A stretch of DNA of 64,000 nt, from the NCBI GenBank assembly GCA_965198225.1, contig CBDAOY010000007.1:990045-1054044 (forward strand). The letters run 5' to 3'. Both the position numbers and the translations under genes were made by a program. The notes beneath the pieces are model-generated. The model had not been told where the DNA came from and made no database searches. It saw only the letters and a list, made by a program, of their open reading frames with translations. Positions 1,955-63,345 of the stretch are shown in pieces; positions within the stretch are counted from its first letter, which is position 1, and each line of letters starts with the position of its first letter. Origin of the DNA: Terriglobia bacterium. GTDB lineage: Bacteria; Acidobacteriota; Terriglobia; 20CM-2-55-15.

Positions 1955-1960
1955 TCGCGT

Positions 1961-8004: not shown

Positions 8005-8081
8005 CTCTTCCCTCCGTTGCCCGGCAGATGTATGAACGCCGGGCTGATTCCATTTCTACGGGAGTGTCGGCGTTGACGGAA

Positions 8082-8102
8082 TCGCATGAACATGCGGTTT
8101 TC
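8082..8102. promoter_or_regulatory. 21-bp motif TCGCATGAACATGCGGTTTTC (core palindrome CGCATG-NN-CATGCG), copy 1
   Basis: Lies about 80 bp upstream of the giant protein start (8004). A near-identical copy sits at 8281..8301. Confidence 0.3.
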
Positions 8103-8280
8103 TCATCTAAGCCGATGGCCGAGACCGCGTATTGAGAACTCGGCAGGGGGACGGTTGCTGGAGCGGCGGTGAATTCTGATGGATGGAAGATGTAAGCCGA
8201 CGTCTCTGATCTATGGACTCAGGCGGCCGAGACCGCCCGTGTATCGCACGGCGCTACGAGCATTTGCAAGCGGGGGAGAC

Positions 8281-8301
8281 TCGCATGAATATGCGGTTTT
8301 C
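8281..8301. promoter_or_regulatory. 21-bp motif TCGCATGAATATGCGGTTTTC, copy 2
   Basis: Matches 8082..8102 at 20 of 21 positions, 199 bp away. GGCCGAGACCGC also occurs next to both copies. Confidence 0.3.
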
Positions 8302-8422
8302 GCTTCGTCCGTAAGAGATCAAATCTGAGAGCCTGGGAAGTGCTGTGATAGCCGCCAGCAAATCAGTAGTCAGTTGCTTTTGGCGCATCCCTAACTGACT
8401 ACCGACTCCTGACTACTAACCA

Positions 8423-13251: not shown

Positions 13252-13309
13252 TCTTCTCTCCTGCGCTCAATGATGATTTCGATTCTTGTGACGCAACCCT
13301 TTTCTCTGA

Positions 13310-14560
13310 TCAATTCAGTTGGACGCGATCGAACGCATCCCAGGCAGACATGTCGGAGAGGATCACTTCGTCTCCAACGTTGAGCCCCTGGACGATCTCC
13401 ATCGTGCTTACCGACGTCCGGCCCAGCCGGACCTGTGTCCGGACGGCTTCACCGTCAATGCCGAGCCTGAAGATCCCAACCAGGCTGTTTGCCTGTCCGT
13501 ACGCCGGCCGTCCGACGTAGAGGACATCTTCCAGGCGTTCGATCTCGACCGTGCCATCGACACTCAAGTCCGGGCGGGCTCCGCGGGGCAACTCCCCGTC
13601 GAGCCTGACGTCCACTTTGACCGTTCCGTTCAGCACCGCCGGGTCGATCCGGATCACCGTGCCGGGGATGACCCCGTTCCGGGTGTCGATGGAGGCAAAC
13701 TGCCCGACCTGGATGTCCTTGGCCTGAGTCTCTGCGATGTTCAGTTCGGCTTTGAGCTTTCCGGGTTCGGCCACTCGCGCGATCCGGCTGCCCGGCGAGA
13801 GGCGGTCACCGACCTCGATCGGAACCTGTTGCAGCACGCCGTGGATTCCGGCACGTACCCTCAGTTTTTCCAGCTCAGTCAGCCGGAGCTCGTATAGAGC
13901 ATTCAACTGTTCGATGCGGGCTTCCTGCGCTGCCAGCTGAGCTTCGGCGGCCTGCGAAGCGATTTCCAACCGCTGCCCCTCCAGCTTGAGCCGTTCGCTG
14001 AGCTGCTCGGCGTCGACGCGCGACTTGTTCAAGTTCAGTTCCGCGATCAAGCCCTCTTTTGCCAGCTCGGCATCGGCTTCATATTGCAGCCTGGCGCTGT
14101 TGGCCTGGCCTTCGATTGCAGCGGCCCCGGCCCGCTGGGTCAGCAGGTTGCTCTGAAGCTGGACCCGCAGGTTGGCCAGTTCGGCCTCAGCGACGCGGAT
14201 CTGGAGCGCGACGTCCAGCGTGGTCTGTTCCAGGTCGGGGTTGCTCAGCTCAACCACAACCGTCGCCGGGTCGACCGTGACGCCCGGCAGGACGACGATT
14301 CGTTCCACGAGTCCTTCCGTCGTGGCGGCGATCCACCGAATTTCCTCGGGCACGAGTTTGCCGAGTCCCCGAACCTGGCGGAGCATCTCACCTCGTTCCA
14401 CGGTGTCGATGTACACGGTCGCGCGATCGACCCGTGGCGCCGCCGGCTTCAATCGGGACAGACCCAGGGTGATGCCGGAACCGACAAGGATCACCAGCGT
14501 TCCATAGACGATGCGCTTGATCCGCTTCTTTCTGGCTTGAGATGGGCGGGGTTTATCCAT
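13310..14560 (-). CDS. HlyD/MacA-family periplasmic adaptor (membrane fusion protein)
   Basis: N-terminal TM anchor, long coiled-coil hairpin (LQIRVAEAELANLRVQLQ..AQLAAQEARIEQL), and barrel-sandwich/beta-barrel C-terminus. A GGAGG Shine-Dalgarno precedes the ATG. Confidence 0.85.
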   Translation of the reverse strand: MDKPRPSQARKKRIKRIVYGTLVILVGSGITLGLSRLKPAAPRVDRATVYIDTVERGEMLRQVRGLGKLVPEEIRWIAATTEGLVERIVVLPGVTVDPATVVVELSNPDLEQTTLDVALQIRVAEAELANLRVQLQSNLLTQRAGAAAIEGQANSARLQYEADAELAKEGLIAELNLNKSRVDAEQLSERLKLEGQRLEIASQAAEAQLAAQEARIEQLNALYELRLTELEKLRVRAGIHGVLQQVPIEVGDRLSPGSRIARVAEPGKLKAELNIAETQAKDIQVGQFASIDTRNGVIPGTVIRIDPAVLNGTVKVDVRLDGELPRGARPDLSVDGTVEIERLEDVLYVGRPAYGQANSLVGIFRLGIDGEAVRTQVRLGRTSVSTMEIVQGLNVGDEVILSDMSAWDAFDRVQLN

Positions 14561-45077: not shown

Positions 45078-45256
45078 GGGGTGTCTCCTGATTCAATGCG
45101 AAGGGCAAGTTCTCCGAACGAATCATTTGATCGACTTTTCTTCAGCCGATATTGTAAGCGAAGTCACCGAGATGGGAAGGGTAGCGTGGATGTCAAAGAC
45201 GAGAGAGGTGAGGGGCGCCGGCAGACGATGACGCGACCTGCCGGCGTCTGCGCCTT

Positions 45257-45915
45257 ATCCCGGGCGTCGACGCATCTCTTCCCGGGTGATGAATCCATCA
45301 TCGTCCGCGTCGAGGCGGTCGAAGGCCTCAGTCGGTCGGGTCCACTCGTCACGAGAAACCTTGCCGTCGCCGTCTTCATCCATCTGGAGCATCGCGGCTC
45401 CCCGGCCACGTCCGCCTCTGCCCGGGCGGGAGTTCTGCATCTCTTCGAGAGTGATGAAGCCGTCGCCATCGGCGTCCATGGTCTCGAACATCTGCGCGGG
45501 ACCCGGAAACTCCTGCTGCGACACGCGTCCATCGCCATCGCTGTCGAGCCCCTGGAAACGGGCTTGAGGGTCTGCGCCTCTTCCGCCTCTATCCCGGGCG
45601 TCGCCATCTCTTCCCGAATCCATCATCGTCCGCGTCGAGGCGGTCGAAGGCCTCAGTCGGTCGGGTCCACTCGTCACGAGAAACCTTGCCGTCGCCGTCT
45701 TCATCCATCTGGAGCATCGCGGCTCCCCGGCCACGTCCGCCTCTGCCCGGGCGGGAGTTCTGCATCTCTTCGAGAGTGATGAAGCCGTCGCCATCGGCGT
45801 CCATGGTCTCGAACATCTGCGCGGGACCCGGAAACTCCTGCTGCGACACGCGTCCATCGCCATCGCTGTCGAGCCCCTGGAAACGGGCTTGAGGGTCTGC
45901 GCCTCTTCCGCCTCT
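45257..45915. repeat. Tandem direct duplication (334 bp + 325 bp) inside the EF-hand coding region
   Basis: 45257..45590 and 45591..45915 are identical by eye except for a roughly 9-10-nt indel cluster at the start of each unit (..GACGCATCTCTTCCCGGGTGATGAATCC versus ..GCCATCTCTTCCCGAATCC). Confidence 0.85.
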
Positions 45916-46746
45916 GCCGCGGCCGCCCCCGAATTGCCGCTGGATTTCGTCACGAGCGAGGAGACCATCATCGTTTCGATCGAGCCGGTCGAACGTCTCG
46001 CCGTCGCCCGTCCACTCTTCCCGTGAGATTGTACCGTCCTCGTTCGTGTCCATGACGCCCATACCGCCCGCAGTCCCGGGCCTCTGCCCCGGCCGAGGGC
46101 GCATACCACGCATGCCGCGGCCGCGACGCTGTCCCTGTTCCTGTCCGTAGGCGGTGATCTCCCCTCTGAGAGCGACCTCGAGCGCTGCCCTGGCTTCGGG
46201 GACATCGAACCCGGCCGGCCCGGGGCGTCCCTTGAAGGCGATGGTGCCGTCGGAGCCCACGACATAGATCCGGTCGGGAAACGCGGCGTACGCATTCGCC
46301 GTCCGGTCGTCGATCTTGTCCAGAATGGTCGGCATCGAGATGTCCAAGGCGGTCGTACAGATGTTGGCTGCTTCCTGGCGCTGCTCGTCGGTTTTGGCTT
46401 GTTCGATCAGGATGCCGTCGATAACATTCGCCGCTCCGAGGTTGCCGTCGGTGGGATGCGCTTCTCGAATGTAGACGAAGAAGAAATTGGCGCGGTCCTT
46501 GTAAGCCTGGTACCAGTTTTCGATGTCCACGACATCGCGGCGGAACGGGCCTCAGGTATAGCTGGCGAAGATCAGCGCGGTCGGTCTGCCCGTCATCTCA
46601 GAAAGCGTAATCTTTTGCTTTCCGTCTTTTGTACTGAGCGTGAAATCAGGCGCCGTATCTCCAGGCGTGGGGCCGCCGCCTCGCCGCTGGGCCGTGGCAG
46701 GGCTCACCAGGACGAGGACCAATAACGCAGACGCGAATGTTCTCAT
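45589..46746 (-). CDS. Candidate selenoprotein: secreted deiodinase-like thioredoxin-fold domain (in-frame TGA = Sec) fused to EF-hand repeats
   Basis: Track ORFs 46552..46788 and 45589..46530 are in one frame. Read through TGA 46554..46552 they give ..TALIFASYT-U-GPFRRDVVDIENWYQAYKDRANFFFVYIREAHPTDG... The ATG at 46746 is preceded by GGAGGAG and is followed by signal peptide MRTFASALLVLVLVSPATAQ. There are five intact EF-hand loops plus one truncated loop. Confidence 0.6.
46521..46537 (-). promoter_or_regulatory. Candidate bacterial SECIS hairpin
   Basis: The RNA CGAUGUC-GUG-GACAUCG starts 14 nt after the UGA. It is a 7-bp perfect stem with G/U in the apical loop. Confidence 0.4.
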
Positions 46747-48544: not shown

Positions 48545-48613
48545 CCAAGCCTGTTGGGGGATATATTGGGGGAGTGCTGGAGTGCCTCTGCCCCATCGGT
48601 CGAGGGCTCTGCA

Positions 48614-49792
48614 ATGGCCATTCACAAACTCTCCCAACGCAAGGTAGACACCGCCGGTCCCGGCAAATACGAAGACGGCGGCGGGCTCCGCTTGGTGGTG
48701 TCCAATTCAGGCGCCAGGAGATGGGTCCTGCGTTACACCGTCCACGGCAAACGCCGGGAAATGGGTCTGGGCCGTTATCCCGATGTCGGGTTGGCCGATG
48801 CCCGCACGCAAGCGCTACGGCACCGGAGGCAGTTGGCGACGGGCGTAGATCCCATCGCAGCCCGCCGGGCGGCCCCGGAGACGCTACCCACCTTCACCAT
48901 CTGCGCCGCCCGGTATATCCGGGCCCATCGACGGAGTTGGCACAATGCCAAGCACGCGCGGCAATGGGTCCGGAGCCTGAAGACCTATGCCCGGCCCGTC
49001 ATCGGGGCCAAACGGGTCGACGCCATTGAGACTGAAGACATTGTAAAGATACTCTCTTCGATCTGGAACACCAAGACCGAAACGGCCAAGCGCGTGCAGG
49101 GGCGCATCGAAAATGTCCTGGACTTCGCCGCCGCGCACCAATACTGCGGTCCCCTGAACCCGGCCCGCTGGCGGGGCCATCTGGACAAGTTGCTCCCGAA
49201 GCCCTCCCGGGTGAAGCAAGTCACCCACCACCCGGCCATGCCGTATCCCGAGGTGGCGGACTTCCTGCAGGAGCTGTCCGGACACCGGAGTGTATCGGCG
49301 CAGGCGCTGCGGTTTTTGATCCTGACCGCCACGCGCACCAGTGAAGTCTTAGAGGCGCAGTGGCCGGAAATCGATCGGACCGCCGGTATATGGATCCTTC
49401 CCGCCTCCCGGATGAAAGCCCGACGGGAACATCGAGTTCCCTTATCGGATGCGACCCTGGCGGTTCTGGAAGACCTACCCCGCATGGCAGGCCACCCGTA
49501 TGTCTTCGCCGGATCTCGCCACGGACGCCCTCTGTCGAACATGGCCCTACTGAAATTGATGCGAGACATGGGATATTGCGTTGAGGGTTCCCGGGCTCAC
49601 TACGTGCCGCATGGATTTCGCTCCAGTTTTCGGGATTGGTCCGGCGAGGTGTCGAGCTTCCCGCGAGAAGTTGCGGAAATGGCCTTGGCCCACGTGGTGG
49701 AGAACAAGGTGGAAGCGGCCTACCGGCGGGGGGATCTGTTCGCCAAACGGCGCAGCATGATGCAGGCCTGGGCCGACTACCTCAAGAAGTAG
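48614..49792 (+). CDS. Tyrosine recombinase / P4-type integrase (DUF4102 arm-binding N-terminus)
   Basis: MAIHKLSQRKVDTAGPGKYEDGGGLRLVVSNSGARRWVLRY..GRYPDVGLADAR. Catalytic region TATRTSEV, HGFRSSFRDW, AYRRGD. Confidence 0.9.
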   Translation: MAIHKLSQRKVDTAGPGKYEDGGGLRLVVSNSGARRWVLRYTVHGKRREMGLGRYPDVGLADARTQALRHRRQLATGVDPIAARRAAPETLPTFTICAARYIRAHRRSWHNAKHARQWVRSLKTYARPVIGAKRVDAIETEDIVKILSSIWNTKTETAKRVQGRIENVLDFAAAHQYCGPLNPARWRGHLDKLLPKPSRVKQVTHHPAMPYPEVADFLQELSGHRSVSAQALRFLILTATRTSEVLEAQWPEIDRTAGIWILPASRMKARREHRVPLSDATLAVLEDLPRMAGHPYVFAGSRHGRPLSNMALLKLMRDMGYCVEGSRAHYVPHGFRSSFRDWSGEVSSFPREVAEMALAHVVENKVEAAYRRGDLFAKRRSMMQAWADYLKK

Positions 49793-50795: not shown

Positions 50796-51380
50796 TTACG
50801 TCCCACAGTTCTGGTAGTCCGAGGCCATACACGTGCGCGCCCACTCAATGGCGCGGCTGATCTGGGCACGGGTCATTTCACGTTCAAGGTTGCCCCGCGA
50901 CTCCTCGGGCCCAACGCCGGCGACGCTGACCCTCCCATTGGCGCTGGCGATATTGAACCACATGTGCGCGAGCACGTCGTCCTCGATGCCGCCCAAGCCG
51001 TTGTAGTACATCAACCCGAGGTTGAACTGCGCGCTCGCGTGCCCCTGCTCGGCCGCCATGCGGTACCATCGCGCCGCTTCCGCATCGTCTTCGATGACAC
51101 CCTCGCCGTGGGCATACATGGTTCCGAGATTGAATTGCGCACGCGCGTCCCCCTGCTCGGCCGCTATGCGGAACCACCGCATTGCTTCACGGTCATCCTC
51201 CATGGCGGCCTCGTCATCGTCGTAGGTGCTCCCGAGGCTGTCCGGCGTATCCGCGTTCCCCTGCTCGTCTTCGGCCTGAAAGCGTCCTGGTTCGTCCTGC
51301 GCCGGAACACATGCCGCGGCCAGCAGCCAGGAGCCGCAGAGCAGTGTCATCGCGATCCATCGGTTACGGTGTTTCTTCAC
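50796..51380 (-). CDS. Sel1-repeat (TPR-like) protein, secreted, possibly a lipoprotein
   Basis: Signal sequence ..LLAAAC. Three Sel1 repeats (AMRWFRIAAEQGDARAQFNLGTMYAHGEGV.., AARWYRMAAEQGHASAQFNLGLMYYNGLG..). Confidence 0.85.
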   Translation of the reverse strand: MKKHRNRWIAMTLLCGSWLLAAACVPAQDEPGRFQAEDEQGNADTPDSLGSTYDDDEAAMEDDREAMRWFRIAAEQGDARAQFNLGTMYAHGEGVIEDDAEAARWYRMAAEQGHASAQFNLGLMYYNGLGGIEDDVLAHMWFNIASANGRVSVAGVGPEESRGNLEREMTRAQISRAIEWARTCMASDYQNCGT

Positions 51381-51620: not shown

Positions 51621-51971
51621 CTAACGTCGGCGGCCGCAGGACACGAATATCTCCACGTCGGCCCTCAGCGCGCGCTCCGTGTTGTGGCTGAAGGCACCCC
51701 GGGCCGCTTTGAAGTAGGCGGCCAGTTGGTCCCCTGCCTCCGCAGCGTATTCAACACGGAACGAGAGCGTTCTCGAGCGGGTTGGTCTGCCCGATCGCCT
51801 TGTGCAGCGTGGCGATGCTGGAGACGTAGCGGCGCACCGTCGCCGGGGCCTTGACGCGCGCCATGTCGTCGATGAAGGCGACCAGGGTGGGGGCGTTGGC
51901 GGGCAACGCCGGCACGACCTGCTGCCGGCAGCCAGGATCTCCATCTCGCATGTCATCTCTGAAATCAGCAT
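51621..51971 (-). pseudogene. Fragments of a tyrosine-recombinase N-terminal (SAM-like) domain, frameshifted and in permuted order
   Basis: The frame A segment ..CRQQVVPALPANAPTLVAFIDDMARVKAPATVRRYVSSIATLHKAIGQTNPLENA is followed by the frame B segment ..AAYFKAARGAFSHNTERALRADVEIFVSC. In intact integrases of this type the B-like segment precedes the A-like segment. Confidence 0.45.
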
Positions 51972-52041: not shown

Positions 52042-52611
52042 AGCCCCGAGATAACGCTTTCCTCGCCGTTGATCACACGGCGCGGCGGATTTTTTTCGAT
52101 CCGGCGCCTGCTGCCCATCAGCTCAGGGGGGGCGGGACGCAACGAGGTCTGTCTACCGAACGGGGGAGTTGTGGTGCCTTCTACGGCCCGAATGAGCGCG
52201 ACCAGATATCGCCAGCGAACCGGAGAAAGGGACATCGACTTGGCAGAACACCGTGAAATCGCGGCGTCACGCGTCACAGGGATAGACACGAAAGCGGTGG
52301 CGAAGGACTGAGGTGGCCGTATCGATACGGTCGTGGCGGCGCGCTCACCCGCAGCCGTGGCTGCGCCGATGATTTGTCCATGGGGCGATCCGCCGCGTGA
52401 CCGCAAGCCGCTGGCGATGAGTGCCTGCCCGGTTCACGGAAATCGGGCTATGGGCTCTGCCGTGCAGCGCCGCCCGCCTGTTCCGTGCCGAGCCCGTTGG
52501 CAGGACATGAGCAGTTTCGCCGCCGATACCGTCGATCAACGTGCGACCGTCATCACCGGTCCCCGGGTGTCGGTCCGCGGACGTCAATTCACAAGGGCGA
52601 CGCGCTACCGC

Positions 52612-53751
52612 ATGCGCGTGCTCTCTTTTTCGCTGCAAGGCCTTAAAACCGGGTTATTTCTGCTATTCGCATCACTGCTGGCCGTGTCGGCGCCGATTCA
52701 GGCCAGCGCGCAGGCGAACAGCCCTCCGGCGGTGACGGGGCCAACCAGCGTCGACTACGCCGAGAACAGCGAGGAGACGGTGGCCACGTATATCGCTACG
52801 GACCCGGAGGCCGAAGCAATCGCGTGGAGCGTGTCCGGGACGGACCATGCGCTGTTTTCCATCACTGCGGGTGTCCTGGAGTTCCTGAGCCCGCCGAACT
52901 ACGAGAGGCCTATCGACGAGGGCGAAGACAACGCGTATGAGGTGGGCGTCACGGCCACGGATTCCTCCGGGGCGGCCGCCACCGTTGCGGTCACCGTGAC
53001 GGTAACAGACGTCAACGACCCGAACATCGTCCTCATCATGGCGGACGATGTCGGTTATGAGGCCTTTGGGGCATACGGTAGCGCACAGTACAGAACGCCG
53101 CGAATTGATGAGCTTGCAGCCGCGGGAGTTCGCTTCACGAACGCTTACTCAAACCCGGTATGCACCCCGAGCAGAGTTGCCTTGATGACGGGTAAGAGCA
53201 GTGTCAGGAACTATGTGGATTTCGGAGTTCTACTCCCCGGAGAATACACGATTACTGATCTCTTTAGTGGGGCCGGATACGCAACGGCCATCGCCGGAAA
53301 GTGGCAGCTTCACGGTAGTGTCGTAGGTAGTGACGTAGTGGCTGGTGTCCCTGCCGGAACCGGATTCGACACGTATTCCTTGTGGAATACAGCCAACACG
53401 GGTCGTAGTCGCTACTGGAATCCTTCCATCGAACGCGACGGTGAAATCATCGATCTGGGCAGCGAGGATTACGGGCCCGACATATTCACGAATTTCCTGC
53501 TGGAATTCATAGAGTCCAACAGAGATAAACCGTTTTTCGCCTACTACCCGATGGTGCTTCCTCATGATCCGTTCGGCTCGCCGCCGCAAGCCCAATGCGT
53601 CGATACCGCTGACGGACAGTGCAATTTCGAGGACATGGTCGCGTATCTCGATTACAACGTCGGCCGCATACGCGACAAGCTGGCGGACCTGGAGCTACTC
53701 GACAACACAATCCTCATATTCACCTCCGACAACGGAACTCACGCACGCTGA
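52612..53751 (+). CDS. Signal peptide + cadherin-like domain + sulfatase N-terminal part (continues in the +1 frame; see 53738..58837)
   Basis: MRVLSFSLQGLKTGLFLLFASLLAVSAPIQASA. VTVTDVNDPNIVLIMADDVGY. Formylglycine motif CTPSR. The frame ends ..IFTSDNGTHAR*, in the middle of the sulfatase domain. Confidence 0.8.
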   Translation: MRVLSFSLQGLKTGLFLLFASLLAVSAPIQASAQANSPPAVTGPTSVDYAENSEETVATYIATDPEAEAIAWSVSGTDHALFSITAGVLEFLSPPNYERPIDEGEDNAYEVGVTATDSSGAAATVAVTVTVTDVNDPNIVLIMADDVGYEAFGAYGSAQYRTPRIDELAAAGVRFTNAYSNPVCTPSRVALMTGKSSVRNYVDFGVLLPGEYTITDLFSGAGYATAIAGKWQLHGSVVGSDVVAGVPAGTGFDTYSLWNTANTGRSRYWNPSIERDGEIIDLGSEDYGPDIFTNFLLEFIESNRDKPFFAYYPMVLPHDPFGSPPQAQCVDTADGQCNFEDMVAYLDYNVGRIRDKLADLELLDNTILIFTSDNGTHAR

Positions 53752-56700
53752 TCTGATTTCAGAACTCGGGGGAGAAATGATCCATGGGGATAAGAACATG
53801 CCCAACAATGGCGGCACGCGGGTACCGCTGATAGTCAGCGTTCCAGGAGGTGAGGGGGGACGGGTGTTCGACGACCTGATCGACTTCACCGACTTTCTCC
53901 CGACTCTGGCTGATGCGGCAGGTCTTACGATTCCTGACGTCAATATGCTGGACGGCGTGAGTTTTTGGGACAGGCTTCAAGGCCGAACCGGCCAACCGCG
54001 GGAATGGATATATACCTATTACTTCCCACGTCCGTTCGCCGATAGGTTCGACAATCCGCAACGTCATCCAGAGGCGTCGTATGTCCGAGACAAGCGGTAC
54101 CAGCTCTACGGAACAGGAGAGTTCTTCGACATTTCCGTAGACCCTCACCAAGTGCATCCGTTGCCGAGTGACGATGAAGAGTCCAGCGCCGCCCGTACCA
54201 AGCTGCAAGCGGTTCTCGACTCGATGCCGGGGAGAGGTGAGGAGATTTACCCATATTTGATAGGAACTGTCCCGGACTCTGAGCCGCGCCCGCGATGGCG
54301 GCCCGTCCTGTCGAAAGCAACTGTGAACGGCGGCCAATTGACGCTCACTTACGCCGGAATTCTGGACTCAAGAGAAGCGCCTCCCGCAGATTCCTTCATT
54401 GTGAACGTTGATGGTTCCGAGCGTGCGGTCTCCACAGTTTCGATAAGCAAAACAGCGGTTACGCTTACACTCGCTTCGGCGGTTACAGTTGGCCAGACGG
54501 TGACGTTGAATTACACGCCGGGAACGAATGCGATTCAGCACGCGAACAGGCCATTCGGGCACAAAGCGGCACCCCTGGTTCGCCAAGGGGTGACGAACAA
54601 CACTGTGGACACGACGGCGCCGGCGGTGTTGTCGATCACGAGCGACGCGACGCACCCGACGAAGAACGCTTTCACGGTGACGATAACCTTTTCGGAGGAG
54701 GTGAGGGGACTCACGGCGGGGGAGATCGCGGTCACCAATGGCACGGGCTCGAACTTTGCGGGCACAGGCGCGAGCTACATGCTCGACATCGAACCCAGCG
54801 ACGATATCGAAGCCGACGTGACGGTCCGGGTTCCGGCCGATGCGGCGATGGACGCCGCGAACCTCGGCAACATCGAGGGGATCGAGACCTTCGCGGTGGA
54901 CACCCAGGCGCCGGCGGTGTTGTCGATCACGAGCGACGCGACACACCCGACGAAGGATGCTTTCAGGGTGACGATCACCTTTTCGGAGGCGGTGACGGAG
55001 CTCACGTCGCAGGATATCGCGGTCATGAACGGAGTGGGCTCGAACTTCGCGGGCACGGACGCGCGCTACACGCTCGACATCGAGCCCAGCGCCAATACCG
55101 AAGACGATGTGACGGTCCGGGTTCGGGCCAACGCGGCGGTGGACGGCGTGAACATCGGCAACGTCGAGGGGATCGAAACCTTTGCGGTGGACACCCAGGT
55201 GCCGAGGGTGTTGTCGATCACAAGCGACGCGGCGCACCCGACGAAGGATACTTTCACGGTAACGATCACCTTTTCGGAAGAGGTGACGGGGCTGACGGCG
55301 AGTGAGATCGTGGTCAGCAATGGCCGTGGCTCGAACTTCGCGGGCACGGGCGCACGCTACACGCTCGACATCGCTCCGAACGCCAACCTTGAAGCCGATG
55401 TGACGGTCCGGGTTCGAGCCAACGCGGCGGTGGACGGCGCGAACAACAGCCACGTCGACGAGGGCGAGACCTTCGCTGTGGACACGCGGGCACCGGTGTT
55501 GATGAGCGCTGCGGTGGATGGCGACACGCTGACGCTGAGCTATGGGGAGGCGCTGGGCAACCCGACACCGGAGCCGGGCGATTTCACGATGAATGTGGAG
55601 AGCGCTGGGCGGAGCGTTTCCAGGGTGGCGGTGAGCGGAAGAGCGGTGACTTTGACGCTTGCCTCGGCCGTGGCGCATGGCGAGACGGTGAGAGTGAGCT
55701 ACAGCCCGGGGACGAACCCGATCCAGGACGCGGTGGGCAACCAGGCTCTGGGACTGAGCAACGCGTCGGCCACCAACACTACGGATGCACCCAACACGGA
55801 TCCGATGATCACGAGTCCGGGGCCGTTCAATGTCACTGAGAATCAAGCGCGGGTGACCCGGCTGATGGCGGCCGACGCCGACCCGGGGGACGAGGTCACC
55901 GGCTATACGCTTGTCGGCGGAGCCGATCGGGCCCAGTTCACGGTCGGTGAGGATACCGGAGATCTGGGCTTCCGGGCGGTTCCGAACTTTGAAGCGCCCA
56001 CGGATGCCTTCAGTAACGATCCGCCAAGTGGGGCAGGAGACAACGAGTACATCGTGGTGGTCCAGGTCAGCAGCGGGGCAGGAACGCGGGTGCGGACGGC
56101 GGAACAGACGATTCGCGTGCGGGTGAGTGACGTGGAGGAGCTTCCAGCGGCGCCGGAGGAGCCGACTTTTCCGAGGGCGACGCCGGACAGCCTGACGGTG
56201 GCGTGGACGGAGCCGGACAACACCGGGCCGCCCATCACCGGCTATGACGTGCAATACCGGGAAGGCGTCAGCGGCGGCTTCACGGATGCGCCGCACTCCG
56301 GGACGGCCCAAACCACAACGCTCATGGGGTTGAGCGAGGGCACGGCCTACCAGGTGCAGGTGCGGGCGAGGAACGCGGAAGGAACAGGTGACTGGTCGGA
56401 GCCGGGCGAAGGACGGACCGTGGCCCCGCTGAGGGTTCGGATGACGCCGGAGCTGGAGCCGCCGGTGGAGGGCCCGTTCTCGGTGAGGTTCAGCTTTTCG
56501 GAGACGGTGACGGGTTTCAGCGGAAGCGACATCGAGACGGGTCAGGACCTTGCCTGCATGGACGATCAGAACAACCCGGTGTTCTGCAACCCCGGCTTTG
56601 CGGCATTCGAGACCACGGATAGCCGGGTCTTCACCACCCGCGTGACCCCGAGGACCGGCGGGGTGGCCAATAACTACAAGCTCACGCTCACGGTGCGTGC

Positions 56701-58837
56701 CGGCGGAGTGAGATCGTCTGTCGGCAATAAGCCTAACGAGGAGGCGACGCTTGAGGTGCCGGTGGCGCCGCCGGGGGTGACGGTGCCGATCGGGCCGCTG
56801 GGGCTGACGGCGAGCGGGGGAAACGGCCAGGTGGCGCTCCGGTGGAATGCCCCGGGGGACACCGGGGGCGCCGCGATGGTCCGCTACGAATACCGGGTGG
56901 CGGATGGCGTCGGCGGGGAGTTCGGCGCCTGGATGCGGGTGGATGCGGCGGCGAGGTCCGCGCCGGTCCCCGATCTGACGAACGGCCGGGAATACGTCTT
57001 CGAGCTGAGGGGGGTGAACGCCCTGGGCTACGGCGGGGTGGAGACCGTGCGAGCCACCCCGGTGCGCACCACCACCGGGGACGGAGGAGGCAGAGGAGGC
57101 GGCGGGGGTGGGGGCGCCCTCCGCGGGACAGTGCCGGGCGCGCCGACGAACCTGACGGCTGAGGGCGGGGACGGCCAGGTCGTACTGAGTTGGGACGCCC
57201 CGGAAAGCGACGGCGGGGCGGCGATCACCGATTACGAGTATTGGAACGGCGGGAGTCGGACCTGGACCTCCATCGGTTCCACGAACACCACCCATACGGT
57301 CACCGGCCTCGACAACGGAACGGAATACACCTTCCAGGTGCGGGCGGTCAACCGAAGGGGCCGGAGCCGGGCTTCCAACCGGGCTACGGCGACGCCGGAC
57401 GTGTTTATCCTGGACTTTGCGCATTTCGCCAATGGCGCGTCCATTACCTCCGATCTGGTGCTGGTGAACCCGGGAAGCATCCCGATCCGGCCCGTCGTTT
57501 ATTTCTACGACACCGGGGGCAATCCAATTAACGCCGAATCGGTGGTGGACGTCACCGGTGATCTGACGGTCGCCGAGGACGGTGCCTTGACGGTCCTGGC
57601 GGATATGGAGCCACTCAGAGAACTCACGATTGCGACCCACGGTCGGGGAGCGCTCGTGAGTGGATCGGTGAAGGTTGTCTCTTACGGTCCTGTCGGCGGG
57701 TTCCTGCGCTATAACGTCCCGGATGTCGGCGTGGCCGGTGTGGGAGCGAGCCCGCCCACACGGGATGTCCTTTTCCCGGCCCGCCGCGAGGCGGGAGGCA
57801 TCAATACGGCGGCGGCGATCCAGAACCTGGGAGAGGCACCGCTGGAGGTGAGCTGCCGATTGATGCGCGCGGGCGCGGTGCTGGAAGAGGCGGAGATCGC
57901 TCTTGCGCCCAACGGGCAGTCGAGTGTCTTTATCGACGAACAATTCCCCGCCACCGATACGTCCGACTTCGCGGGGTCGATGCACTGCGACGCCCCAGCG
58001 ACGTTCACCGGTGTGGCGGTCGAGATGGATGCTGTCCACCGCATCTTTACGGCACTGCCGGTGGTTTCCGCGGATCGGCTCAGCGGCGGCAGTGCGACGG
58101 TCCTGGACTTTGCGCATTTCGCCAATGGAGGTTCCATCACCTCCGATCTGGTGTTCGTGAATCTGAAGACCCGTCCGAGCGGGCCCGCGCCCACTCCCTT
58201 TCAGATGGCCATCCCTCCGAGCCGCCCTGCCATCCATTTCTACGACACGGAGGGCAATCCGATGGCGACCGAATCGGTGGTGGACATCACCGGCGATCTG
58301 GAAGTCACCGAAGACGGCGCCCTGACGGTCCGGACGGAGATGGAGCCCTTGGGCGTGCTCACGATTTCGACTCACAGCCGGGGCGATCTGGTGACCGGAT
58401 CGGTGAAGGTGGTCTCGGAGGGTCCCATCGGCGGGATGCTCCGCTTTGACCTCCCCGGCATCGGCGAGGCCGTGGTGGGGGCCAGCGAGCCCCTCAGCGA
58501 CTTCCTCTTCCCGGTGCGCCGCCAGGAGGGAGGCATCAACACGGGGGTCGCGATCCACAACCTGGAATCGAGTCCGGAGTTGGTGCGCTGCGAACTGCTG
58601 CGCGAGGGCGTGCTGCTCGATACCGTGAGCATCCCTCTTGAGGCCAACGGGCAGACCTCCGGGTTCATCGACGGGCGATTCCCCAGCGTCGATACGTCCG
58701 ACTTCGTGGGGTTGGTACGCTGCAATGCAGTCGGTGAGGGGCTCTTCAGTGCCGTCGCCCTGGAACTGGATGCCGCCAACCGCATCTTTACCACACTGCC
58801 AGTGATCCCGCTGCAAGAGACGATGTCTCAGGAATAG
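53738..58837 (+). CDS. Sulfatase C-terminal part + SwmB-like, Ig-like x3, cadherin-like, FN3 x3 and two ~220-aa C-terminal beta domains (giant surface protein)
   Basis: The frame-2 sequence THADLISELGGEMIHGDKNMPNNGGTRVPLIVSVPGG..DFLPTLADAAG continues the sulfatase fold, followed by the repeat domains. The track ORF start at 53564 is upstream filler. Confidence 0.8.
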   Translation, partial: LTHADLISELGGEMIHGDKNMPNNGGTRVPLIVSVPGGEGGRVFDDLIDFTDFLPTLADAAGLTIPDVNMLDGVSFWDRLQGRTGQPREWIYTYYFPRPFADRFDNPQRHPEASYVRDKRYQLYGTGEFFDISVDPHQVHPLPSDDEESSAARTKLQAVLDSMPGRGEEIYPYLIGTVPDSEPRPRWRPVLSKATVNGGQLTLTYAGILDSREAPPADSFIVNVDGSERAVSTVSISKTAVTLTLASAVTVGQTVTLNYTPGTNAIQHANRPFGHKAAPLVRQGVTNNTVDTTAPAVLSITSDATHPTKNAFTVTITFSEEVRGLTAGEIAVTNGTGSNFAGTGASYMLDIEPSDDIEADVTVRVPADAAMDAANLGNIEGIETFAVDTQAPAVLSITSDATHPTKDAFRVTITFSEAVTELTSQDIAVMNGVGSNFAGTDARYTLDIEPSANTEDDVTVRVRANAAVDGVNIGNVEGIETFAVDTQVPRVLSITSDAAHPTKDTFTVTITFSEEVTGLTASEIVVSNGRGSNFAGTGARYTLDIAPNANLEADVTVRVRANAAVDGANNSHVDEGETFAVDTRAPVLMSAAVDGDTLTLSYGEALGNPTPEPGDFTMNVESAGRSVSRVAVSGRAVTLTLASAVAHGETVRVSYSPGTNPIQDAVGNQALGLSNASATNTTDAPNTDPMITSPGPFNVTENQARVTRLMAADADPGDEVTGYTLVGGADRAQFTVGEDTGDLGFRAVPNFEAPTDAFSNDPPSGAGDNEYIVVVQVSSGAGTRVRTAEQTIRVRVSDVEELPAAPEEPTFPRATPDSLTVAWTEPDNTGPPITGYDVQYREGVSGGFTDAPHSGTAQTTTLMGLSEGTAYQVQVRARNAEGTGDWSEPGEGRTVAPLRVRMTPELEPPVEGPFSVRFSFSETVTGFSGSDIETGQDLACMDDQNNPVFCNPGFAAFETTDSRVFTTRVTPRTGGVANNYKLTLTVRAGGVRSSVGNKPNEEATLEVPVAPPGVTVPIGPLGLTASGGNGQVALRWNAPGDTGGAAMVRYEYRVADGVGGEFGAWMRVDAAARSAPVPDLTNGREYVFELRGVNALGYGGVETVRATPVRTTTGDGGGRGGGGGGGALRGTVPGAPTNLTAEGGDGQVVLSWDAPESDGGAAITDYEYWNGGSRTWTSIGSTNTTHTVTGLDNGTEYTFQVRAVNRRGRSRASNRATATPDVFILDFAHFANGASITSDLVLVNPGSIPIRPVVYFYDTGGNPINAESVVDVTGDLTVAEDGALTVLADMEPLRELTIATHGRGALVSGSVKVVSYGPVGGFLRYNVPDVGVAGVGASPPTRDVLFPARREAGGINTAAAIQNLGEAPLEVSCRLMRAGAVLEEAEIALAPNGQSSVFIDEQFPATDTSDFAGSMHCDAPATFTGVAVEMDAVHRIFTALPVVSADRLSGGSATVLDFAHFANGGSITSDLVFVNLKTRPSGPAPTPFQMAIPPSRPAIHFYDTEGNPMATESVVDITGDLEVTEDGALTVRTEMEPLGVLTISTHSRGDLVTGSVKVVSEGPIGGMLRFDLPGIGEAVVGASEPLSDFLFPVRRQEGGINTGVAIHNLESSPELVRCELLREGVLLDTVSIPLEANGQTSGFIDGRFPSVDTSDFVGLVRCNAVGEGLFSAVALELDAANRIFTTLPVIPLQETMSQE
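54605..55477 (+). repeat. Three tandem 291-bp (97-aa) Ig-like domain repeats within the giant CDS
   Basis: Units start at GTGGACAC (54605, 54896, 55187) and the array ends at 55477. The protein repeat is VDTxAPxVLSITSDAxHPTKxxFxVTITFSEEV.. Confidence 0.85.
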
Positions 58838-58873: not shown

Positions 58874-59803
58874 ATGAGCTTCGAACCGGGCGTCGACGCC
58901 CAACGCGGGAGAGCCCGAGTCAGGGGGGCACGGACCACGGCATGCCTGGACGGTTCACGGCGCGCCGGCGGTAGACATCCGATCCGTGGACACCGTGGGC
59001 CGGGGGCGCCCCCGGATGCATACCGGAGGCCGGCGGGGGTCCATCATGCCTGGGATGACTGTGATGTCGATGTTGCCGTGCTCGGTCGCGTGCCTCGTCG
59101 CAGCCGGCATCCGCGGTGTTGCGGAATGGCTCCACGCGTTGAGGCTCGACGACAGCTCGCGCTGGCTGGGCCCATCCTCCGAAAACCTCTGCTATCCGTA
59201 TCGCGAAAGGCGCTGGCCTCCGGCGAGCCGGAAGATCCCCCCGGCTGGGAACGGATCTATGAAGGCTCGTTCCTGGAAGCAGCGCTGGTCACACAGCTTT
59301 CCGGCGACTTTCCCGGCCCGGTGCTGGCCGTGGTTTCGGTGCCCTTTTACTCGGCAGACCGGCAGCGGATTTTAGTCCCGCGAGGGGCGCGAGTCGTGGG
59401 CACGGCTCAGGCCGTGGCGAATCAGGACCAATCGCGCCTTGCCGTCAGTTTCCACCGTTTGATCTATCCGGACGGGCGTTGGGTGTCGCTGGAATTCAAC
59501 GGCCTCAATCAGGTCGGCGAGGGAGCCTTGAAAGATCAGGTCAACCGCCATTACCTATCCACGTTCGCCGCAGTCGGCGCGGTCGGCATCCTGAGCGGGC
59601 TGACCTTGCGCGGCTCCAATCCCTATGGCGGCGGGCAGCAGAGCCTTCAGGCTGGGGCCGGACAAGGGCTCGGCCAGGCCGCGACGCGCATCCTGGATCG
59701 TTTCCTGAATCGTTTGCCCACCCTCACCATTCGGGCCGGGCATCGGCTTCGCGTTTGGTTCACTTCCGACGTGCTGGTTCCCCGGCCCCAACAAGGAGAT
59801 TGA
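58874..59803 (+). CDS. VirB10/TrbI-like protein, C-terminal barrel domain only (N-terminus not credible, probably truncated)
   Basis: GSFLEAALVTQLSGDFPGPVLAVVSVPFYSADRQRILVPRGARVVG..RLAVSFHRLIYPDGRWVSL..LPTLTIRAGHRLRVWFTSDV. No TM or Pro-rich N-terminal region was found. A possible start is the ATG at 59126. Confidence 0.6.
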   Translation: MSFEPGVDAQRGRARVRGARTTACLDGSRRAGGRHPIRGHRGPGAPPDAYRRPAGVHHAWDDCDVDVAVLGRVPRRSRHPRCCGMAPRVEARRQLALAGPILRKPLLSVSRKALASGEPEDPPGWERIYEGSFLEAALVTQLSGDFPGPVLAVVSVPFYSADRQRILVPRGARVVGTAQAVANQDQSRLAVSFHRLIYPDGRWVSLEFNGLNQVGEGALKDQVNRHYLSTFAAVGAVGILSGLTLRGSNPYGGGQQSLQAGAGQGLGQAATRILDRFLNRLPTLTIRAGHRLRVWFTSDVLVPRPQQGD

Positions 59804-59804
59804 A

Positions 59805-60722
59805 ATGAAAATGTACCGAAAAGCCTTCACCGTTGTTGTCATGGTTCCGATCCTCATCATGCTCACCACCACGCCCGCGCATGCCCTCTTCGGCTCGATC
59901 CTTGCGGGCATCCAACGCGCCCAGATGATCGCCAATCAGGGGATCCAGATCTACAAGGACACAATGGCGAAGATCACCCTGGACGGCCAATTGACCCAGA
60001 TGACGGATCAGTTCAACCACCTGCAAGAACAGGCGCTCGGAAGTGTCGGGGCGCTCACCGATCCGTTTACGCAGTTGGCTTCGGTGCCGACGCAGTTCAT
60101 CGGCGTGGGTCTCGCGTGGAAGAACGATTTTACCGGCGTTGCCGCGGAGCTTGTCTCGTCGGTGGAACAGATGGGCGAAACCGGCACGAGCTTTACCGAG
60201 TCGTGGCGTGATCGGCTCACCGCCGCCGACACGGTGACTGAGAGCGACATCATTGGTCTGTACAACTCTCAGCGGCCCGAAATGGCCCAGAGAGCGGCAC
60301 GGGGCTACCTTGCGGCGCGAGAGGAAGGCGAGAAACGCCTGGTCCTCGATCACGCCACGAGCGATGCGGCGGCGAATCTCATGATTGCGGCGCGTGAGGC
60401 TGTGGCCTCCTACGAAGGACTGCGAAACAACACCAATACTTCCAACACCGCGCTCGCTCAATCGCAGGTGGCCGGGACCCTGACCCAGGGGAACCTCACC
60501 GCGGCCATGGCGCAGTTGATGGCGTTCGATACAGCAAAGGCGGCAGCGGAAGATTACGAACGCGAGATCGCCCGGCGCGACGCGCTGGCGGAATGGGTCG
60601 AGGCCCAGCGCCGCGCGCGCGTCACCTTCGACGCGCAACAGGCCGGGCTCGATGCCCGGCGCGATGCGATGCGGGAAGGGTTGCTCTTCCAGATTCATCC
60701 GTTCTATCGCGGCGGGAACTAA
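59805..60722 (+). CDS. VirB5/TrbJ-like type IV secretion protein
   Basis: A signal peptide followed by long helical/coiled sequence, in the position between the VirB10-like and VirB6-like genes. Assignment is by layout and context. Confidence 0.45.
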   Translation: MKMYRKAFTVVVMVPILIMLTTTPAHALFGSILAGIQRAQMIANQGIQIYKDTMAKITLDGQLTQMTDQFNHLQEQALGSVGALTDPFTQLASVPTQFIGVGLAWKNDFTGVAAELVSSVEQMGETGTSFTESWRDRLTAADTVTESDIIGLYNSQRPEMAQRAARGYLAAREEGEKRLVLDHATSDAAANLMIAAREAVASYEGLRNNTNTSNTALAQSQVAGTLTQGNLTAAMAQLMAFDTAKAAAEDYEREIARRDALAEWVEAQRRARVTFDAQQAGLDARRDAMREGLLFQIHPFYRGGN

Positions 60723-60734
60723 CCCGGTACGCCG

Positions 60735-61736
60735 ATGCAAATCCAACTCGACCCGGCGATCCCGGCCCAGGTCCCCCCGGAGCAGCTTCGGGATTTCAAG
60801 TCGTTTCTCGATACCGTTCTCGAGGGAATCATCGGCCCGGCGGCCAACCCTCTGCTGGAGACCGGAAACCTGCTGTGGACAGGGTTAGCCGCAATCGTGG
60901 TGGTGTTGACCGGCGCGAAGATCGCGTACAGCGGGAACATTCAGCCGTGGGACATCGTCCGGCTCGTCATCGGTCTGTGGGTGCCGTGGGTCATGTTGCA
61001 GTTCTACTCGACGCCCATCCCGGGGCTGGTCTTCACGTTCCCGGGGGTCATCACGGCGGGCGGGAATTGGTTGCACAATTTCTTGCTTGCGGACACGGCC
61101 TGGTCCATGCATAGCGAACTCGGAAACCTCGTCACCAACCTCGCGGAGGATCTTCAGGTGCAAGCGAATCAGGGGAGTATTCTCGGCGTGCTCACCGGCG
61201 GCGCTCACGCCGTGCTGACGCTCGTTGCCGGAGCCGTCATCATGCTGTTCGTCGTGACCTGTCTCGTCGTTTTGTTCGCGGTTACCTACGCTCAGGTGAT
61301 CTGGGCCCAGATCGCCCTGGCGATCCTCACGCTCCTGGGTCCGATCTTCATTCCCTGGCTGGTGTTTGAGCCGATGAGCTTCATGTTCTGGGGATGGTTC
61401 CGGGCGATGCTGACGTATTCGCTCTACGCCGTGATCGCCGGGGCCGTCATGCGCGTGTTTTCCGGCGTGGGCCTCGCCTACGTCACGACCCTGGGCACCG
61501 CCCAACTCAACTGGCAGTCCATTGGCGATCTCGGTTTGTGGCTCCTGGCGGTCCTGCCCCTGTTCGTGGCCGGGATCCTGTCATCGCTCAAGTGCGGGGA
61601 GCTCGCCTCGATGCTCGTCACCGGTGCCGGTGCATCGGGAAGCGGGCTCATGGGCATGGCGGGGATGGCGGGAACGGTTGCCACCGGCGCCAGCGTGCGC
61701 GCGGCCGCGAAAGCGGGGGCGGGAGGTCTGAAATGA
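60735..61736 (+). CDS. VirB6/TrbL-family type IV secretion membrane protein
   Basis: A polytopic membrane protein of 333 aa with a Gly/Ala-rich C-terminus (GAGASGSGLMGMAGMAGTVATGA), as in TrbL. Confidence 0.7.
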   Translation: MQIQLDPAIPAQVPPEQLRDFKSFLDTVLEGIIGPAANPLLETGNLLWTGLAAIVVVLTGAKIAYSGNIQPWDIVRLVIGLWVPWVMLQFYSTPIPGLVFTFPGVITAGGNWLHNFLLADTAWSMHSELGNLVTNLAEDLQVQANQGSILGVLTGGAHAVLTLVAGAVIMLFVVTCLVVLFAVTYAQVIWAQIALAILTLLGPIFIPWLVFEPMSFMFWGWFRAMLTYSLYAVIAGAVMRVFSGVGLAYVTTLGTAQLNWQSIGDLGLWLLAVLPLFVAGILSSLKCGELASMLVTGAGASGSGLMGMAGMAGTVATGASVRAAAKAGAGGLK

Positions 61737-62404
61737 GCAAGAAGGAAACCCAAGACGCCGGGGTCGAATACGCCGAAATCTGGGGCGAGGCCATCCACGC
61801 GAACCACCACCTGCGGGTGCTCTCTGTCGGGCTGGGGGCGTTGTGCCTGTTGCTCGTCATCGTCGTCATCCGCATCGTGTCGGTCGCTCCCCCGCGCCCC
61901 ATCGTCGTGCGGGTGGATGAAGTCGGCCGCGCCGAGGCCGTCGCCTATGAAGCGATGGAGGCCCAGGCGGACCCCCTCGACCCCACCACCAAATACTTTC
62001 TCAATCGCTTTATCTATGACTTCTACTCCCGGCGGCGGGCCACGGTCGAAGAGAACTGGTCCCGGAGTCTGCGCTTCCTAACGACGGAACTTGCCGGTGC
62101 CTCGTTCCGGGCCGAGAGCCAGAACATCGCCCTTCTCGCGGCGGGCGCGGCGCGGGATGAACTGCAAGTGGATCGCGTCGTTTTGCGGATTCAAGCCAAC
62201 CCCCGGGAGCCCCACAGCGCGACGGCCGATTTCGATCTGGTGCGGCTGGTGGCGCAGAACGAAGTGGGCCGGGAACGCTGGACCCTCTCGCTTCAATTTC
62301 TGTTCCTCGATGAGATCCCGCCGGACCTGATCGTCCACAACCCGATGGGGATCGTGATCACCTATCTGCAAGGAGATCGGGCGATAGTCAGCGGCGAACC
62401 ATGA
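61733..62404 (+). CDS. VirB8/TrbF-like type IV secretion protein
   Basis: The ATG at 61733 overlaps the upstream TGA, with a GGGAGG Shine-Dalgarno. MSKKETQ.., one TM segment (LSVGLGALCLLLVIVVIRIV), then an NTF2-like region YFLNRFIYDFYSRR.. The track ORF start at 61394 is upstream out-of-gene sequence. Confidence 0.65.
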   Translation: MSKKETQDAGVEYAEIWGEAIHANHHLRVLSVGLGALCLLLVIVVIRIVSVAPPRPIVVRVDEVGRAEAVAYEAMEAQADPLDPTTKYFLNRFIYDFYSRRRATVEENWSRSLRFLTTELAGASFRAESQNIALLAAGAARDELQVDRVVLRIQANPREPHSATADFDLVRLVAQNEVGRERWTLSLQFLFLDEIPPDLIVHNPMGIVITYLQGDRAIVSGEP

Positions 62405-63345
62405 TGATCGAGCATTTGCGGGGGAGGGAGCAAAAACTGGAACCGCTCGGTTGGACAGGGCGCGATGCGGAATGGATCGCGCTGGTGTGTTTGCATAGTG
62501 GCGTTTTCACCCGCGCACAATTCTGTTTCTACTTTGATACCCGCCGCGACCGCGCCCATCGGTTTGTACAGGCATTGGTGAAGCGGAGGTCGGCGGTCGA
62601 AACCGATGCCCTCACCTTCAATGGAGGAGGGAAGACGTGCCGGATATCGAGCAAACCGATCTACCGGGCGCTGGGGGTCGAGAACATCCGCCACCGCCGA
62701 AAAGCCCAACCGCCGGTGGTGATGCGGCGGCTCCTATCGCTGGATTTCGTTCTGGAACATCCGGGCATGAACTGGCTTCCCGCCGAGATGGAAAAGGTCG
62801 AGTTTTTTGACGGGCTCGGCCTCTCGCGGCGGTTGATTCCCCGCCGGATTTATTACGGGGCCGTGGGGGCCCAGAAACGCTACTTTGCGCTCAAACTTCC
62901 CCTTGCCGTGGACGCTCGAACCGTCACCTTCGCCTACGTCGATCCGGGGCACAGTACCGCTTCGGAATTGCACTCCTGGGGAGCCGCGCATGGGCCGCTT
63001 TGGGATGCGCTGCGGAAGACGGGGCGGCAGGTCCGGGTGATCGCCATTGCCGCCGAAAACAAGACGGTCGAGCGGGCGGAGCGGGTGTTGCGCGCATGGG
63101 CGGCGGCGGTCCCAGGGGAGCCCAGCGAGGAGCTGACGGTGAAGCGGGAAATCAAGGCGATTGACGAAGCGATGACCCACAAAGACCGGGAATTTCTGGC
63201 CCGGTACGGGGGATTCGGTGGAGCCATGAAACGGTCCGCGGCGCTCCAAAGTCTGCCCGAAGCGAAGGTGACGGAAGGGGTCTCGATTGACGACTACGGG
63301 ACGTGGTTTGCGGAGCGTTTTGCCGGTCCCGAAGGAATACTGTAA
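62401..63345 (+). CDS. Island protein, possibly of the replication-relaxation family (winged-helix N-terminus)
   Basis: LGWTGRDAEWIALVCLHSGVFTRAQFCFYF..AHRFVQALVKRR resembles that family's N-terminus. This is a weak recollection. Confidence 0.3.
   Translation: MMIEHLRGREQKLEPLGWTGRDAEWIALVCLHSGVFTRAQFCFYFDTRRDRAHRFVQALVKRRSAVETDALTFNGGGKTCRISSKPIYRALGVENIRHRRKAQPPVVMRRLLSLDFVLEHPGMNWLPAEMEKVEFFDGLGLSRRLIPRRIYYGAVGAQKRYFALKLPLAVDARTVTFAYVDPGHSTASELHSWGAAHGPLWDALRKTGRQVRVIAIAAENKTVERAERVLRAWAAAVPGEPSEELTVKREIKAIDEAMTHKDREFLARYGGFGGAMKRSAALQSLPEAKVTEGVSIDDYGTWFAERFAGPEGIL

Follow-up and report, generated by a model that had tools for sequence, protein, structure and literature searches.

A gene at positions 52612 to 58837 of a 64,000-nucleotide stretch of DNA from a Terriglobia bacterium (contig CBDAOY010000007.1; the whole stretch is referred to here as the window) is very likely a genuine pseudogene of a giant secreted sulfatase, and it was probably inactivated recently. 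The ancestral gene would have encoded a single Sec-secreted protein of ~2073 amino acids (aa), consisting of a signal peptide, a cadherin-like domain, a Cys-type formylglycine-dependent (S1) sulfatase, a stalk of beta-sandwich domains, and two C-terminal units. A tandem duplication of ACGC inside the catalytic domain would have shifted the reading frame, such that translation beginning at the signal peptide would halt at the TGA at 53749 and produce a 379-aa stub. Because the stub lacks the lysine of the GDK motif, the GGTRVP segment, and the entire C-terminal subdomain, it would almost certainly be inactive. The 5.1 kb downstream of the break carries no signal peptide of its own, and its product would not be expected to be exported. 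The features that define the break are the following.

52612-52710, forward strand: start ATG and Sec-type signal peptide MRVLSFSLQGLKTGLFLLFASLLAVSAPIQASA, read from the sequence; likely the true start
53741-53748, forward strand: tandem ACGC-ACGC, producing a +1 frame shift
53749-53751, forward strand: premature TGA in frame 1, immediately 3′ of the ACGC duplication

The signal peptide that follows the ATG at 52612 begins with MRVLSF and closes with IQASA; gene callers in other assemblies chose upstream starts, at ATG 52450 or 52507. Read directly, the sequence at 53737-53752 is ACTCACGCACGCTGAT. The frame 1 open reading frame (ORF; 52333-53751) terminates in ..LDNTILIFTSDNGTHAR followed by the TGA at 53749-53751, its last residues being IFTSDNGTHAR, and past this stop codon frame 1 contains 32 stops up to 58837. 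The frame 2 ORF (53564-58837) reads ..THADLISELGGEMIHGDKNMPNNGGTRVPLIVSVPGG.., carries on the same sulfatase fold, and remains open for 5.1 kb. Removal of one ACGC (53741-53744) joins the two frames into a repaired protein of 2073 aa, in line with the ~2070 codons that a first-pass annotation, made from the sequence alone, had proposed to belong to one protein.

That annotation had also claimed that a +1 frameshift splits the sulfatase domain. After repair, the PF00884 match covers residues 137-436 and positions 1-300 of the 301-position profile (E=2.7e-46, 158.7 bits against a cutoff of 25 bits), and SGSH_C (PF16347) matches residues 386-532; taken together, the two matches span the junction at about residue 378. 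Likewise, phmmer aligns the protein with the solved kappa-carrageenan sulfatase 6prm without interruption at the junction. Since these matches run through the junction, the two halves belong to one fold, and the split of a single sulfatase fold is confirmed far beyond chance. The possibility, raised at the outset, that the halves are not parts of the same fold is thus contradicted, as is the possibility that orthologs are two separate genes: the nearest relatives are single ORFs.

Three kinds of change would bring the two frames back together: the loss of one base, the loss of four bases, or the gain of two. The spacing from the SDNG motif to the GDK motif is 22 residues, ungapped, in 120/120 aligned intact homologs, and the same spacing is found in the window protein after the 4-bp repair. 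Repair by a single-base deletion would leave a one-residue insertion that is seen in none of the aligned homologs. Because only the removal of 4 bp restores the homolog spacing, as the first-pass annotation had anticipated, a 4-bp tandem duplication is the parsimonious lesion. At the break site, the DNA of the nearest homolog reads ACT CAC CAC GAA/AAA CTG GTT TCG GAC.

Once repaired, the window gene matches the S1 sulfatase catalytic domain over its full length and possesses the motifs of the family, namely CTPSR (found at 53161-53175, where it had been placed at about 53160), the MADD and SDNG metal-site motifs, and the GDK lysine. It differs from S1 sulfatases in that the enzyme is embedded in a 2073-aa multidomain protein and in that its coding sequence is interrupted by the +1 frameshift at 53741-53748 and the TGA at 53749. 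Judged by its sequence, the locus is a pseudogene of the S1 sulfatase family and not a working member. Accordingly named, it would be annotated as one pseudogene rather than as the 414- or 433-aa "sulfatase" and 1679-aa "hypothetical" protein of public gene calls. The protein database contains the truncated product as called from the source contig of 1.08 Mb (P0001, 414 aa), along with three near-identical variants from other contigs.

Three contigs from sister strains bear on whether the lesion is real. Two of them, L001 and L003, are PacBio-type metagenome contigs from different samples; coverages are those given in the contig labels.

L001 (ERZ25072076, 2x): 99.4% identical to the window over 16.6 kb; same CACGCACGC; gene without further lesions
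L003 (ERZ25072670, 4x): 99.7% identical over 16 kb; same CACGCACGC; an additional C in the C-run at 53234 constitutes a second frameshift
L002 (ERZ25069191, 18x, contig of 2.78 Mb): 99.8% identical over ~8 kb, up to 53622; break site absent; additional TT in the T-run at 53532

The duplication is thus present in three haplotypes, and L001 and L003 each carry private substitutions. In L002, homology to the window stops at 53622 (L002 position 11118 onward), within the sulfatase gene. A Transposase_mut (IS256-type) gene lies ~600 bp past the breakpoint, and the rest of the sulfatase gene and the type IV secretion system (T4SS) genes that follow it in the window are gone, consistent with a deletion of about 10 kb mediated by an insertion sequence (IS). 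A transposase of the same family is located just beyond the T4SS genes in L001.

Constraint on the gene is relaxed. Nine substitutions distinguish the strains within the gene, eight of them nonsynonymous (including W>L and L>P) and one synonymous. The same comparisons gave 33 nonsynonymous and 57 synonymous substitutions in the flanking genes (3 and 22 in TrbI; Fisher p=0.003 versus the gene). The locus therefore combines what is looked for in a pseudogene: a break inside a conserved domain, reproduction of the lesion in L001 and L003, relaxed selection, and further decay in sister strains. A heritable inactivating mutation is probably the cause, being much more likely than an error. Of the two origins offered by the first-pass annotation, a 4-bp duplication or a sequencing error, the former stands and the latter is disfavored, given that the same site was recovered in two assemblies from other samples and is not a homopolymer.

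Several points weigh against this conclusion. The lesion rests on agreement between assemblies, two of which have coverages of only 2x and 4x, and the additional indels of the sister strains sit in homopolymer runs, which are prone to consensus error in long reads. The contrast in substitutions is based on only nine changes within the gene. The downstream 5.1-kb frame is fully open in three strains, which fits a recent lesion or some continued use. An intact allele of exactly this gene was not found, the closest intact relative being 69% identical, and a scan of JGI metagenomes for either allele (GACAACGGAACTCACGC N{0,4} TGATCTG...) returned 0 matches.

If the lesion were an artefact of sequencing or assembly, the organism would have one ACGC and an intact 2073-aa gene. 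The low coverage labels of the related contigs (2x and 4x, in metaMDBG style) would fit this explanation, as would the many database relatives of the C-terminal tail that are gene calls starting mid-domain, a pattern expected of frequent indel errors. The identical 4-bp duplication, though, recurs in three assemblies that differ elsewhere, at a site that is neither a homopolymer nor a long microsatellite, and the substitutions inside the gene look unconstrained. In the 18x sister strain the gene is physically truncated, with a transposase gene beside the breakpoint. Moreover, the assembly is not generally frameshifted, because the window genes sampled match Pfam models end to end (Opp permeases and ATPase, an amino-acid permease, a prolyl oligopeptidase, a sigma-54 activator, and others). 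We therefore consider an artefact unlikely.

The break could also serve regulated expression, either as a programmed +1 ribosomal frameshift at CGC-UGA, similar to that of RF2, or as phase variation by slipped-strand mispairing at ACGC. In favor of this, the stop codon coincides exactly with the shift site, and a ribosome slipping by +1 at CGC UGA U would produce ..THARDLIS.., which exceeds the homologs by a single residue; contingency loci, moreover, usually take the form of short tandem repeats within genes for surface proteins, as the lesion does. Recoding is opposed by the homologs, all 120 of which are in frame here, such that the shift site is not conserved, by the inability of CGC to re-pair as the +1-frame GCU, and by the absence of a Shine-Dalgarno-like stimulator upstream (no GGAGG- or AGGGGG-like element in 53720-53745). 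For phase variation, a tract of only two ACGC units would not slip efficiently, and the three alleles seen do not differ in length. The other disabling lesions gathered in sister strains argue against either form of regulation, which is very unlikely overall. Least probable of all is an arrangement of two functional genes, in which a short secreted N-terminal protein would be accompanied by a 1679-aa adhesin starting at the internal ATG at 53798. Gene callers annotated the 1679-aa ORF in L001 and L003, and the downstream frame is open over 5.1 kb. The division would nevertheless fall midway through the sulfatase alpha/beta fold, the 1679-aa product would start with MIHGDKNMPNNGG.. and have no signal peptide, and no homolog is arranged as two genes at this point. 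ORF length is itself weak evidence, since the high GC also keeps open a meaningless 1482-aa antisense ORF. This antisense ORF (54368-58816, reverse strand), opposite the adhesin gene, looks like a GC-rich shadow ORF.

Returning to the inactivated gene, the domain layout of the repaired protein is as follows, all on the forward strand. The C-terminal units are each divided into subdomains A and B.

52720-53025: N-terminal cadherin-like/Big_9-like beta-sandwich ending in DVNDPN (Big_9 E=3.1e-4, Cadherin E=1.8e-3, both under the gathering score)
53026-54244: S1 formylglycine-dependent sulfatase catalytic domain and SGSH_C (PF00884, PF16347), with the frameshift inside
53161-53175: CTPSR formylglycine motif, Cys-type, residues 184-188, aligned with CGPSR of 6prm
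54299-54601: SWM_repeat 1, SwmB-type (PF13753 residues 562-637, E=3.6e-33 for two copies; also TIGR02059)
54617-55486: three 97-aa Big_12 Ig-like repeats (three PF19078 matches, E=1e-35)
55487-55777: SWM_repeat 2 (second PF13753 stretch; limits from sequence motifs)
55802-56140: Cadherin domain (PF00028 residues 1071-1170, E=6.7e-10)
56144-56425: FN3 domain 1 (PF00041, best stretch residues 1179-1265)
56426-56773: weak Big_12-like beta domain, residues 1271-1386 (PF19078 E=1e-5, 26.1 bits against a gathering score of 27 bits)
56789-57400: FN3 domains 2 and 3 with a Gly-rich linker between them (three PF00041 stretches in total, E=1.3e-38; limits from motifs)
57401-58066: C-terminal unit 1, with A at 57401-57748 (beta-sandwich) and B at 57749-58066 (TM1070/ASRT-like)
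58097-58834: C-terminal unit 2, with A at 58097-58483 and B at 58484-58834 (TM1070/ASRT-like); stop codon at 58835-58837

Pfam and NCBIfam models bear out the domains listed by the first-pass annotation (sulfatase, two SWM, three Big_12, Cadherin, three fn3, and two C-terminal units) and add two to them, the N-terminal cadherin/Big_9-like domain and the weak fourth Big_12-like domain. The former occupies residues 37-138 and also precedes the sulfatase in homologs P0002-P0007. The DNA encoding the Big_12 repeats is a 291-bp tandem repeat (54605-55496, 3.1 copies, 84% matches). The ancestral stalk would accordingly have run SWM, three Big_12, SWM, cadherin, FN3, Big_12-like, and two FN3 domains, ending in C-terminal units of two sandwiches each, the second of which has a TM1070/ASRT fold predicted to bind sugars.

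The best solved relatives of the enzyme are the exo-4S-kappa-carrageenan sulfatase 6prm (a remote match with numerous gaps, E=1.9e-41 across ~330 residues) and human arylsulfatase A (1auk); other near solved enzymes include the kappa-carrageenan sulfatase S1_16 (9fo1) and GalNAc-6-sulfatases. The substrates of the closest solved enzymes are sulfated galactans and glycosaminoglycan-type sugars. The ancestral protein may have been an extracellular or cell-surface sulfatase that its adhesion and sugar-binding domains held at, or targeted to, sulfated glycans. We infer its substrate and surface location, and likewise that the tail served as an anchor and that the window comes from a sponge symbiont, as discussed below. 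Stand-alone sulfatase relatives of ~445 aa with 60-64% identity are abundant in Bryobacterales metagenome-assembled genomes (MAGs).

The twelve best non-self matches to the protein are multidomain sulfatases that combine the enzyme with SWM, cadherin, Big, and FN3 domains. The search for intact orthologs proposed in the first-pass annotation yielded four single-ORF homologs with at most 69% identity:

P0124: 1718 aa; nearest relative, 69% identity; single ORF through the sulfatase; has the unnamed two-sandwich unit
L004 (Dehalococcoidia-labelled MAG): 3536 aa; intact ORF; subtilase and P-domain
L005 (Latescibacteria-labelled MAG): 1463 aa; intact ORF; Calx-beta
L006 (Aldehydirespiratoraceae-labelled MAG): 2722 aa; intact ORF; Spondin_N

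These giant proteins share with the window protein a core composed of the cadherin-like domain, sulfatase, SGSH_C, and SWM_repeat (53-69% identity), followed by cadherin/FN3 stalks. They differ from it in that their sulfatase frame is unbroken and their partner domains are not those of the window protein; the C-terminal two-sandwich tail found no match in L004-L006. The enzyme-adhesin family is thus recurrent in genomes labelled as three phyla and is uncharacterized, and no account of the fusion turned up in literature searches that combined sponge, sulfatase, cadherin, and FN3. The architecture had been called uncommon, which holds among characterized proteins but not among uncultured genomes, where intact giants occur in three MAGs.

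The gene of P0124 is itself found in two states. On a 4x contig (L084), it abuts neighboring ORFs in other frames, and genes for a group II intron reverse transcriptase and an IS4-type transposase are located a few kilobases upstream (818-4266). On a 29x contig (L085), it is split by an insert of ~1.8 kb (12707-14476) carrying a 474-aa ORF without a Pfam match, and an ORF of the same length (474 aa; 7898-9322) lies 3.6 kb upstream of the insert, which may be an unclassified mobile element. Because the window gene and its nearest homolog have been broken repeatedly and in different ways (indels, truncation beside a transposase gene, and the 1.8-kb insert), such genes appear to be dispensable, with a quick turnover.

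Neither of the ~230-aa C-terminal units, which the first-pass annotation left unnamed and for which it suggested a search with domain hidden Markov models, matches any Pfam model, even at E<=10; subdomain B could be assigned by structure instead. The last 478 residues were modelled with AlphaFold2 from an alignment of 84 sequences; the model is confident (pLDDT 90.5, pTM 0.87), all-beta, and contains four sandwiches. Each unit consists of subdomains A and B, which are unrelated to one another by profile comparison; an internal duplication relating A to B was considered and rejected (hhalign probability <1%). On the strength of the model, subdomain B can be assigned with confidence to a predicted TM1070/ASRT-like fold. 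This fold defines the ASRAH superfamily (TM1070/Anabaena sensory rhodopsin transducer) of De Souza, Iyer and Aravind 2009, for which sugar binding has been predicted and which includes extracellular cell-surface versions (PMC2739507). Sugar binding by the C-terminal units is accordingly a prediction at the level of the superfamily. The window subdomain has the ASRAH fold, and the resemblance is structural only: sequence profiles do not recover it, and identity to solved ASRAH structures is 9-13%. Compared with the superfamily, the window sandwich is always paired with an unrelated preceding beta-sandwich, and this A-B pair occurs twice, at the very end of secreted proteins of very large size.

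Searching 1.84 billion cluster representatives with a profile retrieved 2319 proteins at E<=1e-3, 583 of them at E<=1e-30. Among the best matches listed, most have two profile stretches, the better one at or near the C-terminus, in proteins of 700-4667 aa. Five proteins with the tail were scanned for their remaining domains. Their heads are LRR, glucose/sorbosone dehydrogenase with Spondin_N, Calx-beta, and cadherin-like; FN3 is present in all five, and SWM and cadherin are present in some. Because the heads differ among these proteins, the tail appears to be a conserved cassette beneath variable payloads, the pattern expected of an anchoring or sorting module. Many of the database matches to the cassette (P0126-P0245) are gene calls of 300-400 aa that start mid-domain, which suggests that many of the parent genes are fragmented, by frameshifts or by errors of low-coverage assembly.

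As a tentative extension, the duplicated A-B unit could be an unclassified anchoring or sorting cassette and, as such, the mark of a combinatorial family of giant proteins displayed at the surface, with swappable heads (counting sulfatase, glucose/sorbosone dehydrogenase, LRR, Spondin_N, and Calx-beta), SWM/cadherin/FN3 stalks, and spread between phyla on mobile elements. The window gene would then belong, as one decayed member, to a system that tethers enzymes either to the glycan of the cell's own envelope or to a host matrix.

The genes surrounding the pseudogene are those of a possible integrative element, with an integrase and T4SS genes flanking it.

48554-49792, forward strand: tyrosine integrase (Arm-DNA-bind_3, Phage_int_M, Phage_integrase)
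50796-51380, reverse strand: secreted Sel1-repeat protein with 108-bp DNA repeats (PF08238 E=8e-25)
58874-62404, forward strand: type IV secretion remnant, comprising TrbI/VirB10 (58874-59803), an ORF (59805-60722), TrbL/VirB6 (60735-61736), and VirB8 (to 62404)

Repeats of the Sel1 type count among those called "eukaryote-like" that have been noted in bacteria associated with hosts. No relaxase, coupling protein, or VirB4 was seen in the window ORFs scanned (the window ends at 64000), and no tRNA is located near the integrase; att sites were not searched for. The description of the gene as island cargo is therefore plausible insofar as the integrase and the T4SS remnant flank it, while neither a relaxase nor element boundaries were found. 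The element looks degraded, as an IS follows it in L001 and its TrbI/TrbL/VirB8 segment is missing in L002. The mostly synonymous changes in TrbI (3 nonsynonymous and 22 synonymous) suggest that this allele is older or was brought in as a tract by recombination. Most of the differences between the window and L001/L003 cluster at 59000-60700 and 62400-63300 (TrbI, a 305-aa ORF, and a 314-aa ORF), and the rest of the 16 kb is near-identical. In L001 (2008-3185; window ~49110), a 1-bp deletion divides the tyrosine integrase between two ORFs, which could be an error in this 2x contig. A small ORF at 51751-51951 was considered as an N-terminal fragment of an integrase, for which Pfam gives no support.

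Elsewhere, the window genes include sigma-54 regulators and TolC/HlyD, and the organism is a diderm. Matches to the prolyl oligopeptidase of the window that carry a taxon name reach at most 60% identity and are spread across Cyanobacteria, Acidobacteria, and Verrucomicrobia, below nameless relatives at 64-85%. The sole tRNA of the window, a tRNA-Ser with anticodon CGA (3161-3248), adjoins a gene on the reverse strand (3403-8004) encoding a 1533-aa, probably cell-surface protein with DUF7948 and SBBP beta-propeller repeats. Within an EF-hand gene (45255-46295, reverse strand), a unit of 325 bp is perfectly duplicated in tandem (45291-45915; 1.9 copies, 100% match); the 18x contig L002 apparently has about one 325-bp unit fewer, and the duplication either arose very recently or was introduced in assembly.

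Several of the stand-alone sulfatase homologs come from MAGs named SB0661/SB0664, and the SB0661 series represents symbionts from the sponge Ircinia ramosa (PMC11706023). Arylsulfatases have been reported to be enriched in sponge-symbiont genomes (PMC5649159), and cadherin/FN3 genes have been reported to be enriched and laterally transferred among sponge symbionts (PMC8163846). On account of these homologs and reported enrichments, a sponge-associated origin of the window is a reasonable guess. Like SwmB-type surface proteins (PF13753/TIGR02059) and the cadherin/FN3 proteins of sponge symbionts, the window protein carries, after its signal peptide, an extended series of SWM, Ig-like, cadherin, and FN3 domains. 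In the sponge-symbiont reports, sulfatases and adhesion domains are separate gene classes, whereas the window gene joins them in one fused polypeptide.

Taken as a single locus, the gene is an ordinary decaying pseudogene, and its worth lies in the recurrent fusion family and the unclassified A-B cassette that it brings to light. The C-terminal tandem unit has no family model despite its presence in at least 2319 cluster representatives, and it offers a testable hypothesis of sugar binding. The fusions suggest that the enzyme is physically targeted, in contrast to the treatment of sulfatases and adhesion domains as separate adaptations in the genomics of sponge symbionts.

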